From contig NC_020304.1 of assembly GCF_000341395.1 (NCBI RefSeq), forward strand, positions 1,260,001 through 1,292,000: a stretch of DNA of 32,000 nt. Reading direction: 5' to 3'. This document shows positions 1 to 31,677 of this stretch, piece by piece. Both the position numbers and the translations under genes were made by a program. Origin of the DNA: Desulfocapsa sulfexigens DSM 10523. Lineage in GTDB: Bacteria; Desulfobacterota; Desulfobulbia; Desulfobulbales; Desulfocapsaceae. The first letter of the stretch is position 1; every line of letters begins with the position of its first letter. A model generated the notes under the pieces. It was not told the DNA's origin. It saw only the letters and a program-made list of their open reading frames with translations, and did no database searches.

Positions 1-479
1 CTGAACGATTGGATTTCCTGGTTCAGGAATGTATCACCAGGCAGCAGCATGTTGCTGCTGAACGAAACATTACAATCGAAATGTCCCTTAAAGGGGTGCT
101 CTCTCCAGTTTTCTTTGACCACTTGCGAATGGAACAGGTTATTTCCAATATCCTGTCCAACAGTATCAAGTTTTCTCCTGCGGATAGGCGGATAATAGTG
201 TGTGTCAACCAGGACATTCAGGACATTACTGTGGAGATTTGTGATCGTGGTAAGGGGATAGATGAGGAAGAAATAGCTAATATTTTTGATCGTTATTATA
301 TGGGGCGCACCAATTTTGATGTACGTCCAGAAGGTTCCGGTCTTGGACTTTATATTGTTAAAAATATAATCAATCTCCATGGTGGGGAAGTTTTTGCCAG
401 AAACCGAAAAAGAGGTGGCAGTTGTTTTACTGTACGTATCCCTGTAAAAGCAAATGAATCAGTAATGGATAAGCAATGA
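1..479 (+). CDS. Sensor histidine kinase, C-terminal HATPase_c part (5' end lies outside the window)
   Basis: The reading frame is open from the window edge. N-box 'SNILSNSIKFSP', G1 'DRGKGIDEEE', F 'FDRYY' and G2 'GSGLGLYIVKNI' are present. The stop overlaps the next start as ATGA (476-479). Confidence 0.85.
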   Translation, partial: ERLDFLVQECITRQQHVAAERNITIEMSLKGVLSPVFFDHLRMEQVISNILSNSIKFSPADRRIIVCVNQDIQDITVEICDRGKGIDEEEIANIFDRYYMGRTNFDVRPEGSGLGLYIVKNIINLHGGEVFARNRKRGGSCFTVRIPVKANESVMDKQ

Positions 480-1390
480 GTAACCAAAATATTTTGATTA
501 TAGATGATGATCAGGCCCAGCACGAAATTTTAGGGGAACATCTTGAACTGGCGGGGTTTTCCCCCCTTCATGCAGGGTGCAGTAAGGAGGGCTTTGAGGT
601 TTTGAAAAAGCAGGATGTTGCCCTGATCCTTCTTGACATCAATATGCCCGAGATAGATGGATTTCAAACCATTAAAGTCCTGCGGACACATCCTCGAAGT
701 GTTGATATTCCAGTACTTTTTCTCACCAGCCTTGACCGCCAGTATCTCAAAATCAAGGGACTTGAACTTGGAGCTGATGATTATGTGACAAAGCCCTATA
801 ACGGTGCGGAACTCATGGCCAGGATTAAGGCAATTCTTCGTAGGAAAGGGAAACATCCTGCTGGGAACAAAGCTGCCCTCAGCGGCGATATCAAGGAAAT
901 CGGACTAGGCGACCTCCTGCAAAATATTGATGGTTCACAAAAGAATGGAATAATAACATTTACTGAAATGGATGGAGAACTTGTACTTGTTGATGGGAGT
1001 ATTGTTTCTGCAAAACAGGGGAGCAGCCGGGGAATGGAAGCACTGCTTCGTTTAATGCTCTTGGAACAGGGACATTTTATGGTTTCTTATCAGGATATTC
1101 CAGATACAAAAACGGATCAGACTATCCCTGTTATGAAAGCACTTCTGGATGGTGTTTATGAGGTGGATCAAATTCGAATGGCAGTTGAAGAGACCACTCA
1201 GCAGAAAGATCCATTTCTGGAGTTAACCGGGAATTTAAGTGCCCAAAATTATAGAATTGATAGATTTAAGGCAAAATTTCCTTGTCGTTTTATTGATCTG
1301 GTAACGACCATGGATGGGGCACTGCGAAACAATGTTGAGACGGTACTCAATGCTATTCGAAGCAATGCCGTAGTTTGCCTTAAAAAATAG
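476..1390 (+). CDS. Response regulator: REC receiver domain plus a C-terminal DUF4388-like domain
   Basis: Receiver motifs 'ILIIDDD', 'LILLDINMPEIDGF' and 'ADDYVTKP' are present. The following 'GDLLQNIDGSQKNGIITF..GELVLVDGSIVSAKQGSSRGMEALLRLM' matches the DUF4388 pattern as I remember it. The start is translationally coupled to the upstream kinase. Confidence 0.85.
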   Translation: MSNQNILIIDDDQAQHEILGEHLELAGFSPLHAGCSKEGFEVLKKQDVALILLDINMPEIDGFQTIKVLRTHPRSVDIPVLFLTSLDRQYLKIKGLELGADDYVTKPYNGAELMARIKAILRRKGKHPAGNKAALSGDIKEIGLGDLLQNIDGSQKNGIITFTEMDGELVLVDGSIVSAKQGSSRGMEALLRLMLLEQGHFMVSYQDIPDTKTDQTIPVMKALLDGVYEVDQIRMAVEETTQQKDPFLELTGNLSAQNYRIDRFKAKFPCRFIDLVTTMDGALRNNVETVLNAIRSNAVVCLKK

Positions 1391-6201: not shown

Positions 6202-7347
6202 ATGAAAATATTGCAGAAAAAAAATAATATCAGTTTTTACAGAAAACTGAAGACGAGTCTGGCTTTGATGGGGATTATTCCCTTTCTTCTGGCTGTCTAC
6301 CTTTTTACGCGCCGAACAGAATTAAGTAGTACATTGGTGATTTTCAGTGCTGCACTGGTCCTGATCAGCATACTCATGGGATTTACCATGTTGCGAAGGT
6401 CTTCGGATCAAATGCGGGCACTTGCAAGAAAGACTGCAATACTTGATTCCGGTGATATTCTGGAACCAGTCGATGTCAATGTTGAGGGGGAATTGTATGA
6501 TATTGCAGCAAATTTTAACTCGGTGGTTGAAAAGCTTAATCGCACAAACCGTGACATGCAGAGTCGAAGTTTTCAACTCCAGGAGTTTGCCAGTAATTTG
6601 TCTGAATCCTATGAACAGCTTGAAAAAGAGAACAGGTTACGTAATCAACTCTGTCGCTATGTCGGTAAGGATCTTGTCGACAAACTGATGGTGTCGAGAG
6701 ATGGTCAATTGTTAAAGAATGAAAGAAAAGATGTGACGATTCTTTTTGCTGATATTCGGTCATTCACCGCGTTGTCTGAGCACATGGAGCCTGAAGAGGT
6801 TGTTGCCATGCTCAATGAATATTTCTCAATAATGATTGAAATTATATTTAAGTATAACGGGATGCTTGATAAGTTCGTGGGAGATCAGATCATGGCCGTT
6901 TTCGGTCATATCTCCAATGAAAAAGATGGCGCAAGGTCAGCAGTGCGGGCAGCGCTTGATATGCAGAAAGCCACTGCAGCTCTGATGAAAGAACGCGCTG
7001 GAAGGGATCAGCCTGTATTCAAAATAGGTATAGGGATTAATACTGGAAGTGCAATCCTCGCCAGTGTGGGATCAGCAAACAGGAAAGATTATACTGTTAT
7101 TGGGGATACGGTTAACACTGCAGCGCGACTAGAGGCTCACGCTGCTGGCCGAGAGATAGTTCTTGGGGAGCGCACCTGTTATCATCTTCCTAAAAAATTA
7201 CCCCGTAGTGCAAGGCAGGAGTTGAAAATGAGAAATCGCTCGGGAGCTTTGGCCTGTTACACATTAGTTACCAGGGAAAACAAGGTAGTCATAAGACCCA
7301 AAACTGAAAAAAATCCTCTCATGACTTCTGTTCAGGCTGCCTGCTGA
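6202..7347 (+). CDS. Membrane-anchored class III adenylate cyclase (2 TM, HAMP-like linker, CHD)
   Basis: Two N-terminal hydrophobic helices are present. 'VTILFADIRSFTALSE', 'DKFVGDQIMAVFG' and 'YTVIGDTVNTAARLE' are class III cyclase motifs. The Lys (DKF) plus Thr (YTV) specificity pair suggests ATP as substrate. Confidence 0.9.
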   Translation: MKILQKKNNISFYRKLKTSLALMGIIPFLLAVYLFTRRTELSSTLVIFSAALVLISILMGFTMLRRSSDQMRALARKTAILDSGDILEPVDVNVEGELYDIAANFNSVVEKLNRTNRDMQSRSFQLQEFASNLSESYEQLEKENRLRNQLCRYVGKDLVDKLMVSRDGQLLKNERKDVTILFADIRSFTALSEHMEPEEVVAMLNEYFSIMIEIIFKYNGMLDKFVGDQIMAVFGHISNEKDGARSAVRAALDMQKATAALMKERAGRDQPVFKIGIGINTGSAILASVGSANRKDYTVIGDTVNTAARLEAHAAGREIVLGERTCYHLPKKLPRSARQELKMRNRSGALACYTLVTRENKVVIRPKTEKNPLMTSVQAAC

Positions 7348-8120
7348 TTCCCCCCGCTGTTTTTTTCTATGGCTACAAAATTGAGCGTACTGTGTACGGT
7401 CATCAGAGGAAATATCATAGCTATGAAAAACAGGTTTAACACTGGAACCAGGCTGAGAAGTGCAGGAAAGATCCCCAGACGAAGTGATTGATTGTTGTGG
7501 TTTTTGATCCAGGAGATCTTCTGGCCAAGACTCCAGCGTCTACGGGAACTTGGATAGTCTACGAACATCAGAGCTGAGTAGTAGGTGTAGAGCAGCAATA
7601 CAAGGACCTGTCCCACTCCGGGGATGAAGTTAGCTATCAGTGCCGCAATGGTCACCAGTATTCCAAACAGTCCGATTTTAACCCCCTCCCAGAGATCAGT
7701 CAGAAGTCCTGTTATGTTCAGTGCCGCGTCCGGCTCAAAATTTTCGCCAGCATGTTTCTTTTCCGTTGCAGTGGACAGGAAAACATATCCCGGTGCGGAG
7801 AGACTGTAGGCAATAAGAAACGCGAGATAAAAAGCCACAATGCGACTGACGATGATAAAGCTCCAATACATCGCCTGCCAGCCAAGATATTTTGTCCATC
7901 CCCAAAGGCCAACGGCTTCTGGTTGAGCGAGAAAAAAGTTTCCAGTGAGGCCATCCACAAAATCGACGGTAAAAAGGTATCCTGCCCAGGTAAAGACCAT
8001 GGTGAGAATGACAAGAATGGCACTCCACCCCATCAGGCGTTTAGAGCGCAGGAGGAATGACAGGGAATAGGAGAGAGGAATCCATGTGGCTGCTGTTGTA
8101 TTATTTTTCATAGAAAACAT
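7332..8120 (-). CDS. EI24/CysZ-like family integral membrane protein
   Basis: It is a multi-pass membrane protein. 'FIPGVGQVL....YYSALMFVDYPSSRRRWS....LVPVLNL' fits the EI24/CysZ pattern. I placed the start at MFSMKNN (8120) or MKNN (8111), because the longer tracked ORF (to 8375) would run through the radA promoter and 5' end. The 3' end overlaps the cyclase stop by 16 bp. Confidence 0.7.
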   Translation of the reverse strand: MFSMKNNTTAATWIPLSYSLSFLLRSKRLMGWSAILVILTMVFTWAGYLFTVDFVDGLTGNFFLAQPEAVGLWGWTKYLGWQAMYWSFIIVSRIVAFYLAFLIAYSLSAPGYVFLSTATEKKHAGENFEPDAALNITGLLTDLWEGVKIGLFGILVTIAALIANFIPGVGQVLVLLLYTYYSALMFVDYPSSRRRWSLGQKISWIKNHNNQSLRLGIFPALLSLVPVLNLFFIAMIFPLMTVHSTLNFVAIEKNSGGNQQAA

Positions 8121-8229
8121 AATAGGACTTATGATGGCATGAGTAAAGGGGGATCTGTGCTTTTCTATATGGTGCAAGTATGCTAATGTTTTTGCCAGTA
8201 TAAAATCTTCCAGGACATAGAGAGTTGAG

Positions 8230-9594
8230 ATGGCAAAAAAACAGGAAACAGCATTTGTCTGTACCGATTGTGGTGCAGATTTCAGCCGCTGGTTAGGACA
8301 GTGCAGCGTTTGTAAGGAGTGGAACACCGTCAAAGAAGTCCGTTTGGGAAGGAGTCCTGCAGGCAGGCACTCCACCGGTTATAGTGGTAAGCACTCCATG
8401 GTGCAATTACTCTCTGAAGTGGATAGAAGTCGGGCAGAGAGGATTTCAACCGGAATTGCCGAATTTGACCGGGTCCTGGGACAGGGGATTGTGTGCGGAT
8501 CTGTTGTGCTTATCGGCGGGGCGCCGGGGGCTGGCAAGTCAACTCTTCTTCTTCAGGCGCTGGCAAAAGGTTCGGTATCCGGGATTCCGGTACTCTACGT
8601 ATCCGGTGAAGAATCTCCGCAGCAGATTGCCGAACGGGCCGATCGGCTGGAACTTCCAGCTGGCAATATCAAGATGCTGGCTGAGACATCCGTTGAAGAA
8701 ATCTGCAAAGTGATGAATAAAGAAGAGCCCCAGGTGGTTGTGATTGACTCTATCCAGGTCGTGCATTCAATGTCTTCCGAATCGGCCCCGGGGTCAATCT
8801 CCCAGGTGCGGGAATCCGCGGCAATTCTCACCCGTTATGCTAAAGAAACCAACACTTCCATTTTTATGGTCGGCCATGTGACGAAGGATCATTCTCTCGC
8901 AGGCCCCATGACCCTGAGTCACATTGTGGATGCTCAGGTGGTGCTCTCATCCACTGATGATGCCAGGTATCGTATTTTGCGGGCCGACAAAAACCGTTTT
9001 GGCAGTGTGGGGGAACTTGGTTTCTTTGCCATGACCGACAGGGGCTTGAAGGAAGTTAAGAATCCCTCTGCCATGTTTCTGTCACGATCAGGTACTCCGG
9101 CATCCGGTAGTGCGGTAACCGTTGTATGGGAGGGAACCAGACCATTGCTTGTGGAAATTCAGGCCCTGGTTACTGAATGCCAGTCAGGCAATCCAAGACG
9201 TCTGGCAGTGGGGATGGATCAAAACAGGATTGCCATGCTTCTGGCAGTGCTTGCCAAGCATGGGGGGCTCGCCACGGCCAGTGACGAAGTATACGTAAAC
9301 GTGGTGGGGGGAATTCGGGTATACGAGACAAGTTCTGATCTTGCCGCAATGGTGGGCATAGTTTCCAGTTTGCAGGACAGGGTTATTCCTCATGATTCCC
9401 TCTTTTTTGGAGAAATAGGGCTTTCCGGTGAGATTCGACCGGTGGCCAATGGTGAAGCAAGATTGAAAGAGGCTGCCAAACATGGATTTCGTCGGGCGGT
9501 GATCCCCAAGGCCAATGCTCCGCGGCAGCCGGTGAAGAGTCTTGAAATTGTTGCTGTGGGGAGTCTGGTTGAAGCTCTGGAAGCCCTGTACTAG
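8230..9594 (+). CDS. radA: DNA repair protein RadA/Sms
   Basis: Zn-finger 'CTDCGADFSRWLGQCSVCKEW', Walker A 'GAPGAGKST', 'KNRFG' and a Lon-protease-like C-terminal domain are all present. Confidence 0.97.
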   Translation: MAKKQETAFVCTDCGADFSRWLGQCSVCKEWNTVKEVRLGRSPAGRHSTGYSGKHSMVQLLSEVDRSRAERISTGIAEFDRVLGQGIVCGSVVLIGGAPGAGKSTLLLQALAKGSVSGIPVLYVSGEESPQQIAERADRLELPAGNIKMLAETSVEEICKVMNKEEPQVVVIDSIQVVHSMSSESAPGSISQVRESAAILTRYAKETNTSIFMVGHVTKDHSLAGPMTLSHIVDAQVVLSSTDDARYRILRADKNRFGSVGELGFFAMTDRGLKEVKNPSAMFLSRSGTPASGSAVTVVWEGTRPLLVEIQALVTECQSGNPRRLAVGMDQNRIAMLLAVLAKHGGLATASDEVYVNVVGGIRVYETSSDLAAMVGIVSSLQDRVIPHDSLFFGEIGLSGEIRPVANGEARLKEAAKHGFRRAVIPKANAPRQPVKSLEIVAVGSLVEALEALY

Positions 9595-10261: not shown

Positions 10262-13200
10262 ATGAAGATAAATAGTGTCAAAAGTAGAGGGATAGAGGGG
10301 TGGCATCGTTTCCAACTGGAGAATCATATCCTCTACGTGCAGCCGGATATTCCGGACTGGATCGTCGTTTCCGCTGAAGCGGATCGATTGCTCTGTTCTG
10401 AAAAAAGTAATGCCGCAGATTTTTACAGCAGGGATCAGCTCGAGCATGCCTTTGCCATTGAGCCACTGGAGCCTTATCAGGGCAGAGCATCGTTACTCAG
10501 GCTTAAGCAACTTAAAGAGTGCTGGTTTCACGTTACCGATACTTGCAACCTTAGTTGCCGCCACTGCCTTTTTTCTGCTTCGCCCGCAAAAACCAGAACT
10601 CTTGCTCCTGAACTTTTAGAACATGCAGTGCAGCAGGCATTTGATCTTGGCTGTCGCCTCTTCTCGTTCACCGGAGGGGAACCCTTTCTCTACCATGATT
10701 TCCTGCCCTTTCTTCGCAGCTTACTTCTGAAAAATAAAGAAGTGCATGTGGCAGTGCTTACAAACGGTATGCTGCTTGATCGCTATCTGGAAGAACTCGG
10801 AAGTCTTGAAAGGCTCCATATTCAGGTCAGCCTTGATGGTCTGGAAAGCAGTCATGACAGGTTGCGGGGCAGCGGCACTTACCAGAAATTGGTGAAAAAT
10901 CTTGGTTTGATGAAGGAAGCAGGAATACCTGTGACCCTGTCGGTGGCCATCAGCAGGGAAAATATTGAAGATCTGCCCAAATTAGTGGATCTGGCTGCTG
11001 AGTTGGGAGCGGCATCCATCCACCTGCTTTACCATTTTATTCGGGGTAAGGGGAACAGGGAGCAGTTTATCAGTCCTGACACCATTTTTCCCCACCTGTT
11101 AGCTGCTTGGCAGCGAGCAGACGAACTGGGGCTGACCATTGATAACATTGAGACGCTACGTAGTCAGATCTTTTCAACACCCGGTACCAGATATGATCTC
11201 TCCAACACCGCCTGGGAATCTGTGGCCGTGGGGCCGGACGGTAGTATCTATCCCTCTCCAGCACTTGTGGGAATGGAACAAACTGCCTGTGGACATCTGG
11301 ATCAGGGCCTGGAAACAGTGTGGAAAACAAGTCTTGTCCTCAATGAGTTGCGTCAGGCCAGTCTGATTCATTCTTCAGCGTATCTGGCGAATCCCCTGAA
11401 GTTTCTTGTTGGTGGTGGAGATATTGATCACAGTCTGATGTCAGGAAACGAATGGGTGGGGCATGATCCTTATGTACCTCTCTATAACCGTATTGCTCTC
11501 CAGTTGATCGAAGAACAGGCCAACTGTTATAATCACGCGGAAAAGAGTCAAATTCTCCTGCGTATGGGAGATGTCCGTTATGATTGTCCAGATGGTGAGG
11601 AAGAGAGTGCAGAAGTTGCACTTACTCATTGTAACTGTCTTATTTCCCTGGCCTCTGGCGCGGGACACAGTTCTGTGCGTGAATTTTATGGTGCTGCGGC
11701 GCTTGTTGCCAAGGAGGATATCGCCAATCCCCTGGCACCTGCCCAGGCAGAGGCTGATTTTATTTCGGAAAAAACCAAAAAGCACTCCTATGGTTGTGGC
11801 AGTCCGGTTACTGATGGTGCTCCACAGGAAGGGGAAACGCTGGTGGATCTCGGTTCCGGTTCCGGAATAGAGTGCTTTATGGCTTCTGCATCAGTTGGCA
11901 AGACAGGCCTGGTGTACGGCATTGATATGACAGATGAAATGCTAAAACTTGCGGGTGATTCATTACCGGAGGTAGCCGGACGGCTTGGTTATAACAATGT
12001 GGAATTTCGCAAAGGGTTTCTCGAGCAGATTCCGCTGGATGATGGTGTCGCCGATGTGGTTATCTCTAACTGCGTGATAAATCTCAGTCCTGACAAGCGC
12101 ATGACCTATCAGGAGATTTTTCGTATTCTGAAACCCGGTGGACGGCTGGTGGTCTCTGATATCGTCACCGACACTGCCATTCCTGCTACTCTCAAGAACA
12201 ATGTCCGTTATCGTGGTGAGTGCCTCGGTGGTGCCATGCAACAGGAGGAACTGGTCACCATGATGGCAGCTGCAGGTTTTTCTGCTATCCGCTTTATAAA
12301 ACGGTTTCCCTACCGTCGGGTGGAGAATGTGGATTTTTTCTCACTCACCTATGAAGCGATCCGTCCGGTTATTGTTCAGGAGGAGTTGGTTGACGTGGTC
12401 TACAGAGGCCCCTATGGTGCTGTCTACACGGAGTCTGGTGTTGCTCTAGTGAAGGGGCGGCGGACATCTGTTTCACTGCAGGAGGTGGCTTTACTGGATG
12501 ACTCTGTCTTTGTACTTGATAAAGAGGGGGTGGTCACAAATGTAGTAATGGAGAACTCCTGCTGTTCTCCTCAGCGTGAGATTAGTAGTATGGGAAATAG
12601 TTGCTGCGATTCAGAAGGTACACACTGCTGCGACAGTGATGAGAGTTCCCCTGAATTGGAACGAAAAACTGAAGGCTGTATGATCTGTGGCACTGACCTG
12701 CACTATTTTACCGATAGTCGGGAGATGGTCTGCAGCTATTGCGGCCGTCTGTTTGTTGCCAATGGGTGTTGCGAGCAGGGTCATTTTGTCTGTGATGGTT
12801 GCCATGGAGAAAATGGAATCGAAGTGATCAAGGCCATCTGCAGTGGAACAGAGGAGCGTGATCTTATAACCTTACTCGAACTGATTCGCAGCCATCCGGC
12901 AATCCCAATGCATGGGCCGGAGCATCATGCCATGATTCCTGGTATTATCCTTGCCTGTTATCGGAATTCCGGAGGTGATATCAGGGAAGAGGCGATTCTC
13001 ACCGGGATCAGCCGAGGGGCAGATATTCCAGGTGGGGTCTGCGGTTTCTGGGGTGCATGCGGGGCAGCAATTGGTTCAGGAATAGCAGTTTCTACAATAT
13101 TTTCAGCCACACCTCTCACCCCGTCACCACGACAGACAGCACAGGCCTTCAGTGCCAAAATTTTAAAGGTTATTTCGGAATACCGTGGTGGGCGCTGCTG

Positions 13201-13399
13201 TCAAAGGGAGACCTGGCTGGCTCTTTCTGAAACTGCCAGGTTGTCAGCAGAGATGCTCTCCGTTCCCATGGAGGCAAAAGGATCCCTTCGCTGTTCACAG
13301 TATATGAAAAACAAAGAGTGCATCAGAAAGCAGTGTCCTCTGTGGGAAAACCGGGTCAGGGAGTTAGAGCAGGAACTTCAGTTTCTTTCTGTGGAATAG
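10262..13399 (+). CDS. Multi-domain protein: radical-SAM domain, ArsM-like SAM methyltransferase, Cys-Cys linker and Cys-rich C-terminal domain
   Basis: CX3CX2C 'CNLSCRHC' with 'FTGGEPFL' marks the radical-SAM core. 'VREFYG...SYGCGSP...GETLVDLGSGSGIECF...GIDMTDEML...VISNCVINLSPDK...LKPGGRLVVSD...YRGECLGGA' matches the arsenite methyltransferase (ArsM) pattern, including Cys positions. The C-terminus carries 'CMICG..CSYCG..CC..H..CDGCH' and 'GVCGFWGACGAAIGSG'. Confidence 0.85.
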   Translation: MKINSVKSRGIEGWHRFQLENHILYVQPDIPDWIVVSAEADRLLCSEKSNAADFYSRDQLEHAFAIEPLEPYQGRASLLRLKQLKECWFHVTDTCNLSCRHCLFSASPAKTRTLAPELLEHAVQQAFDLGCRLFSFTGGEPFLYHDFLPFLRSLLLKNKEVHVAVLTNGMLLDRYLEELGSLERLHIQVSLDGLESSHDRLRGSGTYQKLVKNLGLMKEAGIPVTLSVAISRENIEDLPKLVDLAAELGAASIHLLYHFIRGKGNREQFISPDTIFPHLLAAWQRADELGLTIDNIETLRSQIFSTPGTRYDLSNTAWESVAVGPDGSIYPSPALVGMEQTACGHLDQGLETVWKTSLVLNELRQASLIHSSAYLANPLKFLVGGGDIDHSLMSGNEWVGHDPYVPLYNRIALQLIEEQANCYNHAEKSQILLRMGDVRYDCPDGEEESAEVALTHCNCLISLASGAGHSSVREFYGAAALVAKEDIANPLAPAQAEADFISEKTKKHSYGCGSPVTDGAPQEGETLVDLGSGSGIECFMASASVGKTGLVYGIDMTDEMLKLAGDSLPEVAGRLGYNNVEFRKGFLEQIPLDDGVADVVISNCVINLSPDKRMTYQEIFRILKPGGRLVVSDIVTDTAIPATLKNNVRYRGECLGGAMQQEELVTMMAAAGFSAIRFIKRFPYRRVENVDFFSLTYEAIRPVIVQEELVDVVYRGPYGAVYTESGVALVKGRRTSVSLQEVALLDDSVFVLDKEGVVTNVVMENSCCSPQREISSMGNSCCDSEGTHCCDSDESSPELERKTEGCMICGTDLHYFTDSREMVCSYCGRLFVANGCCEQGHFVCDGCHGENGIEVIKAICSGTEERDLITLLELIRSHPAIPMHGPEHHAMIPGIILACYRNSGGDIREEAILTGISRGADIPGGVCGFWGACGAAIGSGIAVSTIFSATPLTPSPRQTAQAFSAKILKVISEYRGGRCCQRETWLALSETARLSAEMLSVPMEAKGSLRCSQYMKNKECIRKQCPLWENRVRELEQELQFLSVE

Positions 13400-16093: not shown

Positions 16094-17089
16094 CTAACGC
16101 TCAAACAGTGTAGAGAGGCCGCCAAGGACGGAGCCTTCTCCCACACTTTGCCCGCCGGTTTGTGGTGCGGCCTGGTGGATCCGTCCTGCGAGGCGTGAGA
16201 AAGGCAGGGACTGCAACCAGACATGGCCGGGGCCCTGGAGGGTGGCAAAAAAGAAACTTTCACCGCCAAATATTGCCGATTTCACGTTGCCGACAAATTC
16301 AATATCATAATTCACCGTCTGGGTTAATGCTACCAGACAGCCGGTGTCTACCCGCAGGGTTTCTCCAGCTGCCAGTTCCTTTTCTATAATTGTGCCGCCG
16401 GCGTGAACAAAGCAAAAGCCGTCACCATCAAGTTGTTGCATGATAAAGCCTTCGCCTCCAAAGAGTGCGGTTCCGATTTTCTTCTGAAAAGCAATTCCTA
16501 TGGAGACACCTTTTGCTGCACAGAGAAAGGCATCTTTCTGGCAGATAATTCTCCCGTTATACTGCTTGAGATCAAGGGGAATGATCTTTCCCGGATATGG
16601 GGAAGCAAAGGCAACCTTAGCCTTGCCCTGGCCGGTATGAGTGAACATGGTGACAAACAGGCCTTCACCTGAGATCAGCCGTTTCCCGGCACCGAGCATC
16701 TTGTCAAAAAAGCCACCCGATTGCGATTCCTCGGAACCGTCACCGAAGACGGTGTCCATTGTGATGCCGTTGGACATATACATCATGGCACCAGCTTCTG
16801 AAACCACGCTTTCCCGGGGATCCAGCTCAATTTCCACAAACTGCATTTCGTGGCCAAAAATCTCGTAATCAATTTCGTGGGCCCGGGTTCCTGTAACAGG
16901 TGGTGGCGTAGTTGTCGCAGCCGGATTGTTGAGTTCGGCAATGGTTGTTGCCGCTTGCCAGTCCGCAAGACCTTCGCGCCAGACCATGCTCGAACGCGGA
17001 TATTGCCCGGAAGAGAGGGCTGAAGAAAGCTGACTGGTGGTCATGGGACCCGTGGATTTTCCATCTACAGCTACGTACCACTTGGACAT
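16094..17089 (-). CDS. GYF_2 (DUF4339) domain fused to an AIM24 / TIGR00266-family domain
   Basis: The N-terminus '[18 protein letters not shown]...[13 protein letters not shown]' fits a GYF_2 domain. The remainder ('[22 protein letters not shown]', 'GFIMQQL.GDG..FV.AGG', 'GPG.VWLQS') fits the AIM24 family. Confidence 0.8.
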
Positions 17090-18154: not shown

Positions 18155-18538
18155 ATGTCAGGCGATGAACGTAGGGTACATAAGCGATTTTCCATGCGGA
18201 TCCAGACAAAGGTTACAGCTGAGACCTTGTCTGGGAAAACACCGATGATGGAATACCTGACGGCTAATATCAGCGCAGGTGGTGCTTTTATCGAAACCAA
18301 TCACCCACTGCCGCTGGCGAGCAAAGTCCGCATAGATTTCCTCCTATCCCTCGAAGATCTGCAAATCCTGAAATTTATTCTTTCCCTTGAAACTTTGAAA
18401 AGCTGGAAAAGAGAGCGAGTATGGGTGCGTGCCTCCGGTATAGTGGCCAGATGCGAAGCAAACGGCATGGGCATTATGTTTGATGAAAATTATCAGATCA
18501 ACCCCATGGACAGGCCAGAAGGTCCAGAGAACGGCTGA
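18155..18538 (+). CDS. Stand-alone PilZ-domain protein (predicted c-di-GMP receptor)
   Basis: 'RRVHKR' fits RRxxxR and 'NISAGG' fits (D/N)xSxxG. The SD is AGGAG. Confidence 0.85.
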   Translation: MSGDERRVHKRFSMRIQTKVTAETLSGKTPMMEYLTANISAGGAFIETNHPLPLASKVRIDFLLSLEDLQILKFILSLETLKSWKRERVWVRASGIVARCEANGMGIMFDENYQINPMDRPEGPENG

Positions 18539-24746: not shown

Positions 24747-25003
24747 TTCTATTTTCTTGTGTTGGGAAATTGAAAGATTATTGAATTTTCCAGTCACCTA
24801 TCTGCTTTTCGTTGTTTTTCCTTTCCTACCGATGATTTCCAGCTTGTTTTTGTACTGTTGAATTTCCATGTGTGGCCATTTCTTAAAAAAAGGTTTGAAT
24901 GGATGATAGTGAAATTTTGCAGGAGATTTGGGATTTTGGTACGTTACTGACATTAGAAGTGAGCTGTGGAATGCAATCAATACTGTCTTGAATGGAGGAT
25001 AAA

Positions 25004-25684
25004 ATGGTTAAACAATTTTTGTTGCTTGTATTTGTAATTTTATATGCTTCTGTGATATCCAGCCAGGCTGAAGACAGCGAAGTGATTTCAGGGGAAATTG
25101 TTACTGGATTCCGAGTGCTTACAGTTGACCCTGCCTCAAAAGATAATTATTTCACCGTCTATCGGGGAGATTATATAAAGTTCAGCTATCCGGAGGAATT
25201 CACCTCCCTGGCATTCAGTATGGAGGCGTTGAAGCTTGGAGATATGCTCTCTCCAAAACCGGAGGACTCTCCATTTTTTAAAATGAAGGCCGTGGGGAGC
25301 TACGATTATAGTCTTGGTGAGGGCGGTGGCAGCATCACCGTTGTTGACCTTGTACGTCCTAATTATACTGAGGTTACGGCCGATGAGGCTGCAGATATTT
25401 TAAAAAATCTTAAGCCGTTTATCCTTGATGTACGAACTCCTGAAGAATATCAGCAGGTGCATATTGAGGGAACACATCTGATTCCCATCCAGCAGTTGCA
25501 GGCAAGGATTGGAGAACTGGAACCCAGGAAGCATGAAGATGTTTTTATCTACTGTGCCACCGGAAACAGATCAACCGTTGCCTCGCGAATACTGGCTGAT
25601 CAGGGATTTAAACGGATTTACAATCTGCGTTACGGCGTCTATGACTGGGTACGTAAGGGGCATCCTTACAAAACCGGAAGGTGA
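25004..25684 (+). CDS. Exported rhodanese-domain sulfurtransferase with an unassigned N-terminal beta-rich domain
   Basis: Signal peptide 'FLLLVFVILYASVISSQA'. The C-terminal rhodanese has the active-site loop 'CATGNRS'. I placed the start at MVKQF, 6 nt after GGAGGA. Confidence 0.8.
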   Translation: MVKQFLLLVFVILYASVISSQAEDSEVISGEIVTGFRVLTVDPASKDNYFTVYRGDYIKFSYPEEFTSLAFSMEALKLGDMLSPKPEDSPFFKMKAVGSYDYSLGEGGGSITVVDLVRPNYTEVTADEAADILKNLKPFILDVRTPEEYQQVHIEGTHLIPIQQLQARIGELEPRKHEDVFIYCATGNRSTVASRILADQGFKRIYNLRYGVYDWVRKGHPYKTGR

Positions 25685-25783
25685 TTTTTCTGATTCTGAC
25701 GCATCTTGTGCTACAATTATTTTTCTGGTAGCATATGATATTTACTCCTACTTATTGATATCTCTTGCTCTTGGTACTTTGCA

Positions 25784-26605
25784 ATGAAAATAAATACGGA
25801 AGTCATCCAAAAGATTTTTGTTGTTACTTGTGAAGGATCACGACTTGATGCCTCTTTCGCGCAGACTTTTTTTAACGCTATGCAGAGTTTTATTCAGAAA
25901 GGGCATATGGATATCGTGCTCGATCTTTCAAGTGTCGAATTTGTCGATTCCACCGGGCTTGGCGCTATTGTGCAGTGCCTGAAAGAAATTGATGGGCGTG
26001 GACTGCTGGTGCTGTGTGGTGTCAGTGAGATGGTTCTCAGCCTGCTGAAGATGACTCACCTGGATGATATATTTATTCAAGCCGCAGATCGTGACGAAGC
26101 TTTTAAGAAGCTTGGTGCAGAGAAGAAAAAAAGAAGTATTCCTCGTGAGGTGGAAACGGAATTTGTTGCTACTCCTGCCAAGGTAACAGGTTTTGATGAA
26201 GCCCTGCTCGCCTCCTTAACGATGGAAGATGCTGAAACAATTGAGGATGTTAGTGACGAAGAGCGAAGAAAATACCGGCGTCTTATCAGTAAGCAGATAA
26301 CGAATGAAGAAATCATTGTTCATTGCACCAACAGCAGTACCGGGAAACGTTCCACCGGAGTTGTTCTTGATATTTCTCCAGGTGGGCTTCTCCTGGTCTC
26401 GCCTTCAAAACTTTCAGTTGGCGACGAATTTATTCTGGAGGGACGTATTGGAAGAGCATTTAAATTCAAAGAACATACTGTGATCCGTAACTGTCGTGAT
26501 GGAAAATACGGTCTTGAGTTTATTAAGCCGTCCCGCAAAACCACCTCATTTATTCAGCAACTCACTGGTTCTGTGGTGTTGACTAAGAAATGGGCCAGGA
26601 ACTAA
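25784..26605 (+). CDS. STAS (anti-sigma-factor antagonist) domain fused to a C-terminal PilZ domain
   Basis: The STAS part reads 'VLDLSSVEFVDSTGLGAIV' (SpoIIAA/RsbV-type phospho-Ser context, DSTG). The PilZ part has 'RRKYRR' (RRxxxR) and 'DISPGG' (DxSxxG), followed by 'GDEFILEG...KYGLEF'. Confidence 0.85.
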   Translation: MKINTEVIQKIFVVTCEGSRLDASFAQTFFNAMQSFIQKGHMDIVLDLSSVEFVDSTGLGAIVQCLKEIDGRGLLVLCGVSEMVLSLLKMTHLDDIFIQAADRDEAFKKLGAEKKKRSIPREVETEFVATPAKVTGFDEALLASLTMEDAETIEDVSDEERRKYRRLISKQITNEEIIVHCTNSSTGKRSTGVVLDISPGGLLLVSPSKLSVGDEFILEGRIGRAFKFKEHTVIRNCRDGKYGLEFIKPSRKTTSFIQQLTGSVVLTKKWARN

Positions 26606-26641
26606 GTCTTCCATTAATACACGTAACTCCATACTGTTCTG

Positions 26642-27094
26642 ATGTCATCGGTAACGAATGAAATCCCCTCGGGTTCCTCTATAGTCTTCCGCGTTCCAGC
26701 ACGTCTTGCTGATGTTCGTTTGCTTGGTTTTTCAGTTCATGCCCTCTTCCAGAATCTTGGTTTTAATAATATCGAAACCTATCAGCTTGAACTGGCAGTG
26801 ACGGAATCAGCCAATAATATTGTCAAACATGCCTATAAGTTTGCAGAAGATACTTATTTCAACATGAAATTTACCACCACTGATGACAGGGTTATCTGCA
26901 CCTTTGTGGACCATGGAATATTTGAGAATTTTCTGAAAAACAATGGCCAGGGGGAAATTGCCATTAATACCAAAATACTTCCGCCAGATAGTAGAGGAAT
27001 TGCTATTATTTGCGAAGTTATGGATGAGGTAAGTTATCGCAGGTCAGGTGATAAGAATATTTTAAGACTTGTAAAATATTTCTCCCGGTTCTGA
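26642..27094 (+). CDS. RsbW/SpoIIAB-like anti-sigma serine kinase (HATPase_c_2)
   Basis: 'ELAVTESANNIVKHAY' is the N-box and 'VDHG' is G1-like. 'DSRGIAIICEVMDEV' is also present. The size is ~150 aa. Confidence 0.8.
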   Translation: MSSVTNEIPSGSSIVFRVPARLADVRLLGFSVHALFQNLGFNNIETYQLELAVTESANNIVKHAYKFAEDTYFNMKFTTTDDRVICTFVDHGIFENFLKNNGQGEIAINTKILPPDSRGIAIICEVMDEVSYRRSGDKNILRLVKYFSRF

Positions 27095-27099
27095 AGAAA

Positions 27100-28290
27100 A
27101 TGGATCTCATTGAAAAACAGAGTACAGTTCTTGTTGTTGATGACAGTGAGGCCATCCAGACATTATTAAAGGCGTATCTTCGTGACGGTGGATATAATGT
27201 AATGGGTGCAGTTGATGGCGTGGAAGCGCTTGACGTCTGTCTTCGGAATTCGGTTGACCTCATTCTCCTTGATATAGCCATGCCCAAAATGGATGGTTTT
27301 TCTCTGTGTGAAAGACTGCAGAGTGAAAAAAGGTTACGGGCTATCCCCGTCATCATGCTCTCTGCCCGTGAAGATATGGCGTCAAAAATGCGGTCTTTTG
27401 AGCTTGGAGCGGTTGATTACATAACCAAACCAGTTGGCAGGGGTGAGCTGCTGGCTCGTATTCATACGCATCTGGCAATTAGTCGGCTCACTATTTCCCT
27501 TCAGAATGCGAACAGGGAACTGCTTGTTCAGCAGCAGCAATTACTTCAAGGTCTTCATGCCGCCGCAGACCTTCAAAAACACCTTCTTCCCAGGCGTGTT
27601 CCAGATTGTAAGGAATTACGTTTTGCCTCCTACTTTCAACCCTGCCAGGAGGTAGGGGGGGATATTTATAATATTCAGCGACTGGATAGTGACCATCTGG
27701 CTATCTACATCCTCGATGTTTCCGGGCATGGTTTCCCCGCTGCAATGATGACGGCGCTCGCTACTCAGGCACTTAGCGGTTTTGCTGCGATCACCAAAAA
27801 ACAGGGCATGGATGGAAGGGTGGAAAGCGTTACCTCACCGGGAGAGGTGATTCGGGAGCTGAACAAGGAATTTCCAATGGCCCGTTTTAATCGCTATATG
27901 ACAATCGTGTACCTCCTTTTTAATACGAAAAATAGTACCTTCCGATACTGTTGTGCAGGGCACCCCCCGGTTATTCACATGACGCGTGAGGGAGGAATTA
28001 CAGCCCTGGATACAGGTGGGCCTCCTGCTGGAATGGATGGCCACTGGGATGAGGCTGAGGGCTGTTTAAACAGCGGTGACAGGCTTTTCTTCTATACGGA
28101 CGGTTTTACTGAATATAGTAATGAAAAGGGTGAATTGTACGGTACAGAGCGCTTTTTTAACTCCATGATTGGTAGTCGTGAGTTGCCACTTAAGGAGGCG
28201 GCACGGAGTATTATTGGAGAATTGAAACAGTTTGGCGATCAGCTCGATGGGAATGATGATATGACCCTACTGGTTGTGGAGAAAAAATAG
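27100..28290 (+). CDS. Response regulator receiver fused to a PP2C/SpoIIE-type serine phosphatase (RsbU-like)
   Basis: REC motifs: 'VLVVDDSE', 'LILLDIAMPKMDGF' and 'VDYITKP'. PP2C motifs: 'VGGDIYN', 'ILDVSGHGFPAAMMTA', 'FFYTDGFTE' and 'NDDMTLLVV'. Confidence 0.9.
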   Translation: MDLIEKQSTVLVVDDSEAIQTLLKAYLRDGGYNVMGAVDGVEALDVCLRNSVDLILLDIAMPKMDGFSLCERLQSEKRLRAIPVIMLSAREDMASKMRSFELGAVDYITKPVGRGELLARIHTHLAISRLTISLQNANRELLVQQQQLLQGLHAAADLQKHLLPRRVPDCKELRFASYFQPCQEVGGDIYNIQRLDSDHLAIYILDVSGHGFPAAMMTALATQALSGFAAITKKQGMDGRVESVTSPGEVIRELNKEFPMARFNRYMTIVYLLFNTKNSTFRYCCAGHPPVIHMTREGGITALDTGGPPAGMDGHWDEAEGCLNSGDRLFFYTDGFTEYSNEKGELYGTERFFNSMIGSRELPLKEAARSIIGELKQFGDQLDGNDDMTLLVVEKK

Positions 28291-29273: not shown

Positions 29274-29496
29274 AATGAAGTACCCACGTTCTGATCGTTG
29301 GCAGGGCTTCCTGTAAGCTACCATAATCAATGTGTAAGAGTTTTTTTTAAAGAAATATCCTAACAGAATTGCGGTTATTCTGGCAATTGGAAAATGTTTT
29401 TTCAAAATAAGGTGCTTTTTTTTTAGACGGTGCTCACTCTGTGAGCACCTCCCCCTGTTATTATCTTTTTAAACACTTTGGAAAGGAGAATAACAG

Positions 29497-29721
29497 ATGA
29501 AAGAGAAAATGATTGATAACGGGGGCCACTGTTTTCAGCCAATTTTGCCACTTGGTTGCTGGACTCCCTATCGTAATAAAAAACCGGGTGTGGCCAGATG
29601 GCTGATGAGGCGATATAGGAAGGAGATTGATTTTGTGCTCGCTGCATTGGCAATTGGCTTTATGCTGTTAGCAGGGATATGGATGTTTCTTGTTGAACTT
29701 GCGGATGTCGGTCTCAGTTAG
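29497..29721 (+). CDS. Small hypothetical membrane protein (74 aa)
   Basis: SD AGGAG lies 8 nt upstream. The C-terminal hydrophobic helix is 'FVLAALAIGFMLLAGIWMFLV'. Two Cys occur in 'HCFQPILPLGCW'. I recognise no family. Confidence 0.45.
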   Translation: MKEKMIDNGGHCFQPILPLGCWTPYRNKKPGVARWLMRRYRKEIDFVLAALAIGFMLLAGIWMFLVELADVGLS

Positions 29722-29874: not shown

Positions 29875-31677
29875 ATGACAGAGTATAGTTCAAATACAAC
29901 AAACCACACTTTTCATATTCCGGTTATGGGAACAGGGTTTACCATAGATACGCCGCTGAAAGTAGCAAGGTATGGAATTTCTTCTTCAATTTCTCTGGTG
30001 GATGACGTTCTGATTGAACAGGTACGGAAGTTCTACTGTCAGCAGGAGAATGAACCCTATGAAGAGATCACAAATTCGAGTGACGATTCACGTGCACGTC
30101 GTATCACAGCCTATCTGAATCTTGTTGACCGATTGGTACGACGGCAGGTGGAAGAGTTGCAACGCTCGCCTTTTGAAAAGGAGAGTGAGATCACCAAGTA
30201 CTACGAGATGCTTCCGGACGATTCTCCTCTGAAAAACGAATACGCTGAAATGCTGGCAACTGCTGATCAATCAAAAAAGAGTGCTTTACAGGAAATACTT
30301 CGAACGAAGGCTGTTCCAGGCAGTATCGATGTAAATATCATGACCAAACTTGATCGTGACAGGTATAACAAAGGAGAAAAGTTGTCGCCGATCTACGCCG
30401 ATGCAATGAGTGCTCTGCGAGGTTTTGCAGAAAGCACTCTGAATTCTTCAATGGTTTTTTCGGCAGGGATTAATAAACGATTATATCGTTATATGACAGA
30501 GTTCAAGGATTTTTTTCCCAACGCAAATGGTGAGATGAAAAAGAAAATTATCCTGAAAGTAAGTGATCATCGATCATCGGAGATTCAGGGTCGTTTTCTC
30601 GCAAAATTAGGCTTATGGGCCTCTGAGTTTCGTATTGAATCAGGCTTGAACTGTGGAGGGCATGCCTTTGCGTCTAAGGGGTTTCTACTTGGTGTGGTCC
30701 TCGAAGAGTTCAAAAGGAAAAAAGCTGAGTTACTCAAAAAACTTATCCCCATGTATGCAAAGGGTTTGTCAGAGCAGGGAGCGTGTGACGCCAGACTTCC
30801 GGACGACTTTCGGATTACGGTTCAAGGGGGTGTGGGGACAGCGGATGAACATCAATTTCTTCTGAAATATTATGGGGTAAACAGCGTTGGCTGGGGCACT
30901 CCTTTTATGCTTGTGCCAGAAGCAACCCATATGGATGACGTGAATATTAAACGCCTCATGAATGCCTCGGATGATGATGTTTATCTCAGCGATGCCTCTC
31001 CATTGGGAATTCCTTTCTGGAATTTACGGAGTTCCACCAGTGAAGACAAACGACGTGAACGGATAGAAAAAGGAAAACCTGGTTCTTCCTGCCCGAAGGG
31101 ATTTGTCGGTTTTAATACAGAATTCACCAAGATGCCTATTTGTGTAGCTTCCCGCGCTTATATAAACAAAAAACTCAAGCTTCTTGCAAAGGAAAGCCAT
31201 CCTCCAAAGGCTCTTGATATTATAAAAGAGAGGATACTCGCGAAGGCCTGTATTTGTCACGAACTTGGTGGCAACGCAACTGTTCCTCTTGGTATTGATC
31301 CAGAGGCAGATTCCACGGTCTGCTGCGGGCCTGGGATTGTTGATTTTTGCAAAATTGCAACGCTTCGGGAGATGCTTGATCATATTTATGGACGTTTTTC
31401 ATTGCTGAAATCGAGTGATCGTCCGCATATGTTTGTAAAAGAACTTGGTTTGTATATTGACTATCTTCGTAAAGAAATAGACAACTTTCCGGTGGGACTT
31501 GCAGTGAATAGTGCTTCCTTTCTGGAGGGAATGAGGGAAAATTTGTTTAAGGGTATCGAATATTACCAGGCACTTTCGAGTGAGCTTGTTGAAGATTCCC
31601 AGGAGAAATTTTTGGCGGGATTGAAGAACATGAAAAAAGCCCTCGAACCGTTGTCACTTGACAAGGCGGAGCTGTAA
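29875..31677 (+). CDS. Large conserved-looking hypothetical protein (600 aa); possible divergent TIM-barrel flavoenzyme-like fold
   Basis: It is a long clean ORF with SD GAGG 6 nt upstream. 'ESGLNCGGHAF' and 'VQGGVGTADE...GVNSVGWGTPFM' weakly resemble the 'EAGGH' and 'GGI' motifs of NMO/FabK-type enzymes. There is a Cys cluster near the C-terminus ('CICHELGG', 'VCCGPG'). Confidence 0.8.
   Translation: MTEYSSNTTNHTFHIPVMGTGFTIDTPLKVARYGISSSISLVDDVLIEQVRKFYCQQENEPYEEITNSSDDSRARRITAYLNLVDRLVRRQVEELQRSPFEKESEITKYYEMLPDDSPLKNEYAEMLATADQSKKSALQEILRTKAVPGSIDVNIMTKLDRDRYNKGEKLSPIYADAMSALRGFAESTLNSSMVFSAGINKRLYRYMTEFKDFFPNANGEMKKKIILKVSDHRSSEIQGRFLAKLGLWASEFRIESGLNCGGHAFASKGFLLGVVLEEFKRKKAELLKKLIPMYAKGLSEQGACDARLPDDFRITVQGGVGTADEHQFLLKYYGVNSVGWGTPFMLVPEATHMDDVNIKRLMNASDDDVYLSDASPLGIPFWNLRSSTSEDKRRERIEKGKPGSSCPKGFVGFNTEFTKMPICVASRAYINKKLKLLAKESHPPKALDIIKERILAKACICHELGGNATVPLGIDPEADSTVCCGPGIVDFCKIATLREMLDHIYGRFSLLKSSDRPHMFVKELGLYIDYLRKEIDNFPVGLAVNSASFLEGMRENLFKGIEYYQALSSELVEDSQEKFLAGLKNMKKALEPLSLDKAEL

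Follow-up and report, generated by a model that had tools for sequence, protein, structure and literature searches.

A conserved STAS-PilZ fusion protein in a partner-switching-like gene cassette without a sigma factor in Desulfocapsa sulfexigens

Partner switching and cyclic di-GMP (c-di-GMP) signalling both rank among the most widespread means of regulation in bacteria, and at their described meeting points it is the switch that controls synthesis of the messenger: in Pseudomonas aeruginosa the phosphorylated STAS protein HsbA binds and activates the cyclase HsbD (PMC5085249), while SiaC switches the diguanylate cyclase SiaD (PMC7278518). In the current study we analysed a stretch of 32,000 nucleotides from Desulfocapsa sulfexigens DSM 10523 (NC_020304.1, positions 1,260,001 to 1,292,000; the window), with emphasis on three plus-strand genes which encode a fusion of a STAS and a PilZ domain, an RsbW/SpoIIAB-like serine kinase and a response-regulator phosphatase composed of a receiver (REC) and a PP2C domain. 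The fusion protein, WP_015403406.1, encoded on a contig of 3,986,761 bp, is annotated just as 'anti-sigma factor antagonist'. A predicted messenger receptor domain is here built into the switch protein itself. Our comparisons would suggest that STAS-PilZ is a conserved family confined to the Desulfocapsaceae/Desulfobulbaceae, which are sulfur-cycling Desulfobulbales.

With the RsbU-V-W and SpoIIE-AA-AB systems of Bacillus subtilis the trio shares a PP2C phosphatase, a STAS protein whose helix 2 starts at a D-S-x-G serine, and a small HATPase_c_2 kinase. It differs from them in that neither the operon nor the window holds a sigma factor, that a receiver serves as the input of the phosphatase, that the antagonist carries a C-terminal PilZ domain and that the kinase scores far below the RsbW/SpoIIAB equivalogs. 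In the HptB-HsbR-HsbA(-HsbD) pathway of P. aeruginosa, hybrid sensor kinases act through a histidine phosphotransfer (Hpt) protein on a PP2C receiver protein that sets the phosphorylation of Ser56 of HsbA, and this system is likewise linked to c-di-GMP and without a sigma factor in its operon (PMC5085249). However, its c-di-GMP link lies upstream of the messenger, whereas here a receptor domain is found within the STAS protein; HsbR, like CrsR, unites kinase and phosphatase in one protein, whereas these are encoded by separate genes here, and FlgM, a partner of HsbA, has no counterpart nearby. The likeness to the HptB-type relay rests on Hpt-containing hybrid histidine kinases encoded beside two sister loci (L010 and L081), while none was found at this position or elsewhere in the window. 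The SypE-SypA system of Vibrio fischeri is similar in its receiver-controlled phosphatase and in the Ser56 of its STAS protein (PMC8256260, PMC4517449), and unphosphorylated SypA is itself the output, its target not being known (PMC8256260). Unlike the present proteins, SypE is a single chain with kinase, REC and PP2C parts and SypA consists of a STAS domain alone; again unlike here, the genes belong to a polysaccharide locus.

The closest system in architecture is HenR/Alr3423/All4160 of Anabaena PCC 7120, where All4160 is a STAS domain fused to a glycosyltransferase output and is acted upon by the REC-SpoIIE protein HenR and a kinase, without a sigma factor (bioRxiv 10.64898/2026.04.08.717354). 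As in that system, the D. sulfexigens STAS domain is covalently fused to a non-STAS domain and accompanied by a REC-SpoIIE phosphatase and a serine kinase; the fused domain is an enzyme in All4160, whereas the PilZ domain is predicted to be a ligand-binding adaptor that adds a c-di-GMP input. SiaABCD of P. aeruginosa also joins partner switching to c-di-GMP, and its PP2C phosphatase and kinase set the phosphorylation of the switch protein (PMC7278518, PMC8457831), but the SiaD cyclase is encoded within the sia operon, whereas no cyclase belongs to the present cassette and the messenger would be sensed rather than made. On the c-di-GMP side, the two-domain receptors YcgR, PlzD/VCA0042, MapZ and Alg44 resemble the fusion protein in their C-terminal PilZ domain, with an RxxxR motif directly after the linker, a [D/N]hSxxG motif and a six-stranded barrel, and their C-terminal helix, which also occurs here, is used for partner contacts (10.1101/814665). 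Unlike in these receptors, the N-terminal partner of the PilZ domain is a predicted phosphorylatable STAS domain with a kinase and a phosphatase of its own. No description of a STAS-PilZ fusion was found in the literature searched, which was mostly open-access, nor was anything relevant found there for Desulfocapsa in conjunction with anti-sigma factors or c-di-GMP; a comparative review of PilZ domains does not mention STAS, even among its PilZ fusions (10.1101/814665), and a review of STAS-only proteins mentions neither PilZ nor c-di-GMP. STAS-PilZ thus seems to be an uncharacterised joining of two common signalling systems in one protein, the enzymatic logic being already known.

An initial annotation, made from the letters of this DNA alone, had described three tightly linked plus-strand open reading frames (ORFs) with the anatomy of a kinase, a phosphatase and an antagonist, the last with a phosphorylatable DSTG context and intact PilZ motifs, and had considered the architecture uncharacterised and without a sigma factor or FlgM-like partner nearby. 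Its coordinates proved exact, the literature search described above agrees with it, and a hidden Markov model search against Pfam bore out the anatomy: all five domains of the trio (STAS, PilZ, HATPase_c_2, Response_reg and SpoIIE) score above the curated cut-offs. In the fusion protein, STAS (PF01740) is recognised at residues 3-99 (E-value 1.9e-16; 60.1 bits against a cut-off of 22.6) and PilZ (PF07238) at residues 160-260 (1.2e-7; 32.4 bits against 22.5). The protein passes the superfamily model TIGR00377 (62.1 against 53.45) and falls below the SpoIIAA equivalog TIGR02886 (42.4 against 114.75). In a phmmer search the STAS part matches TM1442 (9e-10) and SpoIIAA (3e-7), and S56 aligns with the first serine of the SpoIIAA 'DSSG', which we take to be the phospho-acceptor Ser58; it likewise aligns with the corresponding serine of RsbV.

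The survey of such fusions and their gene neighbourhoods that the initial annotation had suggested revealed conservation throughout the family. Among 5.8 billion protein clusters searched, 113 proved homologous, with 42-95% identity over the full length; nearly all of these combine STAS and PilZ, and their named members are Desulfocapsa, Desulfobulbaceae or Thermodesulfobacteriota. Among species-representative genomes, full-length relatives (L001-L015) were confined to metagenome-assembled genomes (MAGs) of Desulfocapsa, Desulfocapsaceae or Desulfobulbaceae and one MAG labelled 'Proteobacteria bacterium', every other match covering the STAS part alone. A profile search of 1.84 billion representatives gave approximately 14 full-length representatives at 50% identity among the best 150 of 26,020 matches, and a metagenome scan yielded four further distinct full-length loci and no more. 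In an alignment of 104 sequences D55 is invariant and S56 is retained in 103, the sole exception being a threonine. The RxxxR and [D/N]hSxxG motifs, as refined for PilZ domains (Galperin & Chou, 10.1101/814665), are equally well preserved, as R162, R166, S198 and G201 are present in all 104 sequences, position 196 is always D or N and position 197 always I or V, while R161 is R or K in 101. These invariant motifs, together with the fold, would suggest that the PilZ domain binds c-di-GMP.

An AlphaFold2 model of STAS-PilZ was built on the family alignment, and the two halves were compared with known structures using Foldseek. The STAS half is closest to SpoIIAA as bound to SpoIIAB (1tid_B/1th8_B; TM score 0.85-0.89) and to RsbV as bound to RsbW (6m36; 0.87-0.88), while the PilZ half matches c-di-GMP-bound 4xrn, Alg44 (4rt0), BcsA (4i86), MapZ (5xly) and YcgR (5y6g). 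The modelled PilZ domain comprises strands at residues 177-183, 189-198, 201-205, 215-222, 226-238 and 241-246 and a helix at 251-261, with a predicted local distance difference test (pLDDT) of 84-95. The pLDDT of the linker falls below 50 over residues 120-136 and 145-174. Its spacer (residues 119-135) displays high column entropy and length variation, paralogues ranging from 254 to 322 amino acids (aa), and is followed by an acidic, Leu-rich island that is conserved in the 104 sequences (L145 in 93%, L142 in 82%, E148 in 76% and M147 in 75%). The C-terminal PilZ helix, for which a role in partner binding is described in other PilZ proteins (10.1101/814665), is about as conserved as the STAS core, with a mean top-residue fraction of 0.71 versus 0.74. 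The positions of these and other features are collected in Table 1.

Table 1. Features of the STAS-PilZ cassette of D. sulfexigens (window coordinates) and related PilZ proteins found elsewhere.
Feature	Position	Strand	Remarks
Possible extended -10 element TGcTACAAT	25709-25717	+	read by eye; weak evidence
STAS-PilZ fusion gene	25784-26605	+	273-aa ORF; exact match to WP_015403406.1 / AGF77712.1
STAS domain, SpoIIAA/RsbV-like, residues 1-118	25784-26137	+	AlphaFold2 pLDDT 83-91
D55-S56-T57-G58	25946-25957	+	S56 (25949-25951) predicted phospho-acceptor, first residue of helix 56-69
Ala/Pro/charged spacer, variable, residues 119-135	26138-26188	+	predicted disordered, pLDDT <50
Linker island G-F-D-x-x-L-L-x-S-L-x-M-E-D, residues 136-149	26189-26230	+	from conservation in 104 sequences
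Canonical PilZ domain, residues 160-261	26261-26566	+	RxxxR loop, six-stranded barrel, C-terminal helix
R162-K-Y-R-R166 (c-di-GMP motif 1, RxxxR)	26267-26281	+	preceded by E160-R161; ERRKYRR (residues 160-166) at 26261-26281
D196-I-S198-P-G-G201 (c-di-GMP motif 2, [D/N]hSxxG)	26369-26386	+	from conservation
C-terminal PilZ helix, residues 249-263	26528-26572	+	F256 and G262 invariant; candidate partner-binding surface
RsbW/SpoIIAB-like serine kinase gene	26642-27094	+	150 aa; HATPase_c_2
Kinase N-box E55-S-A-N-N59-I-V-K-H63	26804-26830	+	aligns with RsbW E-A-C-T-N-A-V-Q-H
Kinase G1 box D90-H-G92	26909-26917	+	D-x-G invariant in 11 orthologues
Kinase G2 region S-R-G, not G-x-G	26990-26998	+	partly degenerate relative to RsbW/SpoIIAB
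REC-PP2C response-regulator phosphatase gene	27100-28290	+	396 aa; Response_reg and SpoIIE
Receiver domain, residues 10-121	27127-27462	+	D14, D15, phospho-acceptor D58 (27271-27273), K110
PP2C/SpoIIE domain, residues 197-394	27688-28281	+	D188, D206-x-x-G-H-G211, D334-G335, D386-D387
Hemerythrin-PilZ fusions	e.g. L089:2685-3434, L084:166-942		P0131, P0132, P0138, P0141, P0158, P0166, P0181, P0190
Tail-PilZ proteins	 		P0126, P0130, P0200; PilZ preceded solely by a low-complexity/disordered tail

The two enzymes of the cassette look competent from their sequences. The kinase matches HATPase_c_2 with an E-value of 2.7e-18 (66.6 bits), its sole match in the PDB being RsbW of B. subtilis (6m36_A, 8.8e-7), and it falls below both RsbW equivalog cut-offs (NF003144, 47.3 against 145; TIGR01924, 41.3 against 155). 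The N-box, the G1 box and an R-G...VMD-x-VSY block are invariant among the 11 kinase orthologues compared, in which the G2 region reads S/N/K/R-R-G. The phosphatase contains Response_reg (2.9e-30; 105.1 bits) and SpoIIE/PP2C (9e-40; 137.1 bits) domains and no HATPase domain, the kinase being a 150-aa gene product of its own, and its best PDB match is RssB of P. aeruginosa (3eq2, 6e-34), which is also a REC-PP2C protein; its equivalog scores are low (RssB_Pseudo NF045505, 136.2 against 700; SiaA NF038263, 68.6 against 700). In 11 orthologues of this protein the receiver residues D14, D15, D58 and K110, and D188, D206, G209-H210-G211, D334-G335 and D386-D387 of the phosphatase part, are invariant. 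Since all three proteins fall short of the NCBIfam equivalog cut-offs, they are members of their superfamilies and not of any named system. The domains and motifs of STAS-PilZ and the catalytic residues of the trio appear, by these comparisons, to be intact and under selection.

The three co-directional genes look like one transcription unit, since only 36 nucleotides (nt) separate STAS-PilZ from the kinase gene and 5 nt the kinase gene from the phosphatase gene, and since the downstream neighbour, a DsrE-like gene, is convergent. The possible -10 element lies in the 99-nt gap behind the upstream rhodanese gene; a scan for consensus promoters and terminators gave counts at the level of shuffled sequence, with nothing above chance near this element, and Rfam revealed no riboswitch or other RNA family across the 32 kb. 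Antisense ORFs within the three genes were set aside as short shadows of strongly supported plus-strand genes. No sigma-70-family, FlgM or GGDEF/EAL protein is encoded by the window ORFs of at least 100 aa or by two small ORFs at 29423-29721, as the initial annotation had stated for sigma factors and FlgM-like proteins, and no sigma or anti-sigma gene lies within 8 kb of STAS-PilZ in L081 and L082.

To establish what accompanies the fusion, 20 distinct loci with usable flanks, the window included, were classified by tblastn and Pfam. Both enzymes are encoded at 11 of these, the phosphatase alone at two, the kinase alone at two and neither at five, while Ser56 is kept throughout, whether or not the enzymes are present. 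STAS-PilZ with its Ser56 is therefore the constant element, around which the presence of the two enzyme genes varies. The three-gene order of the window recurs at 10 other distinct loci. One genomic position (locus A) has DAHP synthase and rhodanese genes upstream and DsrE and chalcone-isomerase-like genes downstream. The three-gene module occurs there in the window and in L001-L005, L007, L009, L091 and L093, while L010 has a fourth gene, for a dCache-HisKA-HATPase-REC-Hpt hybrid kinase, immediately ahead of STAS-PilZ. In L081 this hybrid kinase is found with STAS-PilZ and REC-PP2C but without the serine kinase, which is also absent from L011. The two hybrid kinases (L010:3244-5835 and L081:5278-7848) are 82% identical and sit between the rhodanese gene and STAS-PilZ, which makes them a plausible phosphodonor for the phosphatase receiver, as in HptB-HsbR, and strengthens the phosphorelay input that had been proposed at the outset. 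The rhodanese gene itself (24992-25684, plus strand) keeps its place upstream of the module, or of the hybrid kinase, in L001, L002, L010, L081 and L093; only residues 129-221 of its product form the rhodanese domain, and the N-terminal 125 residues have a hydrophobic, signal-like start and no family match.

At a second position (locus B), flanked by LysRS/TrmA genes on one side and by FGGY kinase/solute-binding protein genes on the other, L006 and L008 encode STAS-PilZ and the kinase without the phosphatase (L006:5938-7272, L008:6001-7284). In L006, and in this one MAG only, a stand-alone hemerythrin gene (7907-8362, minus strand) follows approximately 600 nt downstream. L012 (6001-6885), which has FGGY/solute-binding genes in common with L006, encodes a long-linker paralogue of approximately 300-322 aa and neither enzyme, as do L013 and L014, which were grouped with L012 by paralogue type alone, their flanks having matched no locus-B query. 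None of the ten long-linker paralogue clusters examined contains an entry from DSM 10523. Neither enzyme accompanies STAS-PilZ in L082 (8001-8939), where it lies between lipoate-ligase and RecO genes, or in L094. Two STAS-PilZ loci occur in one MAG in several cases (L001 with L012, L008 with L010 and L011 with L015), and the enzymes are probably dispensable locally, acting in trans between paralogues. A REC-CheB methylesterase-like gene (L012:4133-5353, equal to L095:3019-4236) is situated approximately 650 nt upstream of the long-linker paralogue; a chemotaxis link of the MapZ-CheR kind was considered on this account and dropped, as the adjacency is absent from L013, L014 and L082 and is probably incidental.

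The PilZ half of the protein also occurs apart from STAS. Its N-terminal partners were gathered from the best 150 of the 26,020 matches in the representative search, among which hemerythrin-PilZ fusions of approximately 250-280 aa, identified by Pfam, match only profile positions of about 136-269, and tail-PilZ proteins were also found; a word-indexed protein search with a PilZ-only alignment gave eight matches. These proteins belong to the same PilZ subfamily as the window's PilZ half, with which their PilZ halves are 32-44% identical, the N-terminal input being hemerythrin or a disordered tail instead of STAS. Common to them are the motifs ERRxHRR, D/N-x-S-x-G-G, G-x-x-F-K-x-K-E and Y-G-x-E-F, and the acidic Leu-rich stretch before RxxxR and a C-terminal helix of the form F-[LI]-x-x-L-x-G-[AS]-V are shared by all three kinds of protein. 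As the same subfamily is fused to hemerythrin or stands alone, the PilZ domain behaves as an autonomous module with varied inputs. Kinase or phosphatase genes were absent from the vicinity of the hemerythrin-PilZ and tail-PilZ genes examined (L084-L089). Among the matches listed, the PilZ half of hemerythrin-PilZ is the nearest outside relative of the window's PilZ half. Hemerythrin domains are di-iron domains that sense O2, NO or redox state, and hemerythrin-PilZ could couple O2/NO/iron sensing to c-di-GMP reception.

The STAS half, for its part, has unfused relatives in many phyla. The nearest single-domain relatives were examined at 65 loci; 24 of these encode both kinase and PP2C homologues within 3.5 kb, and none of the 65 has a PilZ domain. 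The closest unfused cassette, in Syntrophus/Syntrophaceae, consists of a REC-PP2C protein, a 113-aa STAS protein and a HATPase_c_2 kinase, without a sigma factor. In both loci (L026:2367-6792, L030:2247-6793) it immediately follows a glycogen phosphorylase gene, a neighbour that hints at an output in metabolism, and not through a sigma factor, for these sigma-less cassettes. The simplest history would be that an autonomous PilZ module was appended to the STAS protein of an existing sigma-less cassette in the Desulfocapsaceae lineage.

On balance we favour, as probable by a modest measure, a reading in which the trio forms a phospho-switch resembling partner switching, the substrate being a c-di-GMP receptor in its own right and probably the output as well. 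It builds on the architecture, the conservation of motifs and residues, the folds, the synteny and the modularity observed here, and each biochemical step, like the direction of the logic, is put forward conditionally from sequence comparison. The RsbW-like kinase would bind the STAS domain and phosphorylate Ser56, as expected from homology, and the REC-PP2C protein would remove this phosphate once its receiver Asp58 had been phosphorylated through a His-Asp-His-Asp relay. The source of that relay would be the adjacent dCache hybrid histidine kinase with its Hpt domain in the sister lineages and a protein encoded elsewhere in D. sulfexigens. PilZ would bind c-di-GMP through R162xxxR166 and D196xS198xxG201, in keeping with its invariant motifs and fold. 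The fused protein would then be more than a decoy for the kinase: its PilZ module, through the C-terminal helix and the upstream acidic Leu-rich motif, may contact an unlinked target, and the state of the STAS domain (free or kinase-bound, or phosphorylated at Ser56) may gate this contact. Such a target would answer only when the phosphorelay signal and the c-di-GMP level combined in a certain way. In genomes with two paralogues a single phosphatase and one or two kinases would probably serve both in trans. The initial annotation had looked to an alternative partner of the kinase for the output, which is not the best fit; the fused protein is more likely to be the output because STAS-PilZ is constant, several loci lack the kinase gene and the PilZ module is also found with other inputs. 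Precedents for a STAS or switch protein in the role of output are SypA (PMC8256260), SiaC (PMC7278518), HsbA (PMC5085249) and All4160 (bioRxiv 10.64898/2026.04.08.717354). The initial proposal of two inputs, phosphorelay and c-di-GMP, on one antagonist is plausible.

Several points weigh against this reading. The model of the fusion protein, with a predicted template modelling score (pTM) of 0.45, gives no confident relative geometry of STAS and PilZ and no predicted interface, and with such a score and a disordered linker a structural coupling of the two inputs is not visible. The binding of c-di-GMP, the phosphorylation of Ser56 and every protein contact are inferred. The activity of the kinase is not assured, as its G2 box reads S-R-G and not G-x-G, and the loss of its gene from a locus may mean that the kinase acts in trans. 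Furthermore, no gene is shared across the neighbourhoods of STAS-PilZ (L081, L082), hemerythrin-PilZ (L084, L089) and tail-PilZ (L085-L088), so that no candidate target emerges. Finally, at 150 aa the RsbW-like kinase matches bifunctional anti-sigma factors in size, and a sigma factor or another partner may be encoded outside the 32 kb.

The last point leads to a classical partner switch, which we regard as rather unlikely. The kinase would then be an anti-sigma or other inhibitory factor that sequesters an unlinked target, unphosphorylated STAS-PilZ would capture the kinase and free the target, and c-di-GMP would merely tune the availability of the STAS domain. This agrees with the RsbW-like size of the kinase, whose sole PDB relative is the bifunctional RsbW, with a STAS domain that in structure comes closest to true anti-sigma antagonists, SpoIIAA and RsbV, and with a gene trio of the same logic as RsbU-V-W; moreover, HsbA alternates between HsbR and FlgM, whose genes lie elsewhere or nearby (PMC5085249). 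However, a sigma factor or FlgM-like gene was found neither in the window nor in the flanks annotated for related loci, seven of the 20 loci retain STAS-PilZ and Ser56 without the kinase gene, and the kinase lies far under the RsbW equivalog cut-off (47 against 145 bits). The conservation of PilZ as a unit with other input domains is also hard to explain if it merely modulates STAS. It is possible, too, though we consider it doubtful as a whole, that c-di-GMP is a direct allosteric input of the partner switch. In its entirety this holds that c-di-GMP bound at the RxxxR loop, just after the linker, alters the capture or phosphorylation of STAS by the kinase, that phosphorylation of Ser56 conversely alters the action of the PilZ module, that the protein thereby computes a logical combination of the phosphorelay signal and the second-messenger level, and that STAS-PilZ, hemerythrin-PilZ and tail-PilZ form a modular family conveying varied inputs to one common target via the C-terminal helix.

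The PilZ domain could also be blind to its ligand and serve only in protein interaction or localisation, the system being a single-input phospho-switch. Some PilZ-family proteins have lost c-di-GMP binding and are still functional (10.1101/814665), the Pfam score of the present domain is modest (32.4 bits) and the PilZ of some homologues lies under the precomputed threshold, but this explanation is very improbable given that R162, R166, D/N196, S198 and G201 are invariant, that hemerythrin-PilZ and tail-PilZ relatives keep the binding motifs too, and that PilZ domains in fusion proteins retain both motifs and binding (10.1101/814665). That two genes were joined by the loss of a stop codon or by an error in sequencing or assembly, or that the trio was juxtaposed by accident, has a practically negligible probability. 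A disordered linker of approximately 40 residues could in principle conceal an old gene boundary; however, the window derives from a complete genome, the ORF is identical to the RefSeq protein, 10 other distinct loci have the same gene order and the uninterrupted fusion is present in 113 clusters drawn from NCBI, JGI, ENA and Logan assemblies. In view of this conservation and of the RefSeq identity, an assembly artefact was rejected as the origin of the fusion.

If the favoured reading of STAS-PilZ as receptor and output holds, the family would offer a simple case of serine phosphorylation and c-di-GMP being integrated on one small soluble protein. The question bears on the outputs of many sigma-less RsbV/RsbW/RsbU-like cassettes outside the Firmicutes, and in the STAS-PilZ family the output may be readable through a PilZ module that recurs with other sensor domains. 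Given that D. sulfexigens DSM 10523 is cultured and its genome complete, the proteins are amenable to direct biochemistry.

The window also contains genes for RACo, a pterin-binding CdhD-like protein, DsrE-like proteins, the rhodanese and a class II DAHP synthase, a gene content in keeping with a Desulfobulbales genome. A stand-alone PilZ protein (18155-18538) and a class III cyclase (6202-7347), to which the initial annotation had drawn attention, both exist (PF07238, 2.2e-8; Guanylate_cyc, 9e-30), yet neither bears on the module. The cyclase, a HAMP and class III adenylate/guanylate cyclase protein of 381 aa encoded on the plus strand, was rejected as a component of the system because class III cyclases make a different nucleotide, cAMP or cGMP and not c-di-GMP. 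The PilZ protein (plus strand, 127 aa), which has RRVHKR (RxxxR) and NISAGG motifs, was rejected as a member of a different PilZ subfamily: it is 20% identical to the fused PilZ, lacks the C-terminal helix and has barrel insertions, and Pfam covers only the first half of the profile. Just beyond the flanking genes of the module, an ORF for 600 aa (29875-31677, plus strand) without a Pfam or NCBIfam match is a real gene, as it is conserved in L003 with 79.5% identity over its full length. A separate two-component pair, 24 kb from the module and with no obvious link to it, is formed by the 3' end of a histidine kinase gene (9-479, plus strand; HATPase_c), cut by the window edge, and a REC-DUF4388 response regulator gene (476-1390, plus strand) that overlaps it by 4 nt. 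At 10262-13399 (plus strand) a single chain of 1045 aa combines radical SAM, class I SAM methyltransferase and DUF5714 domains, and at 16094-17089 (minus strand) a protein of 331 aa displays an unusual pairing of GYF_2 with AIM24.

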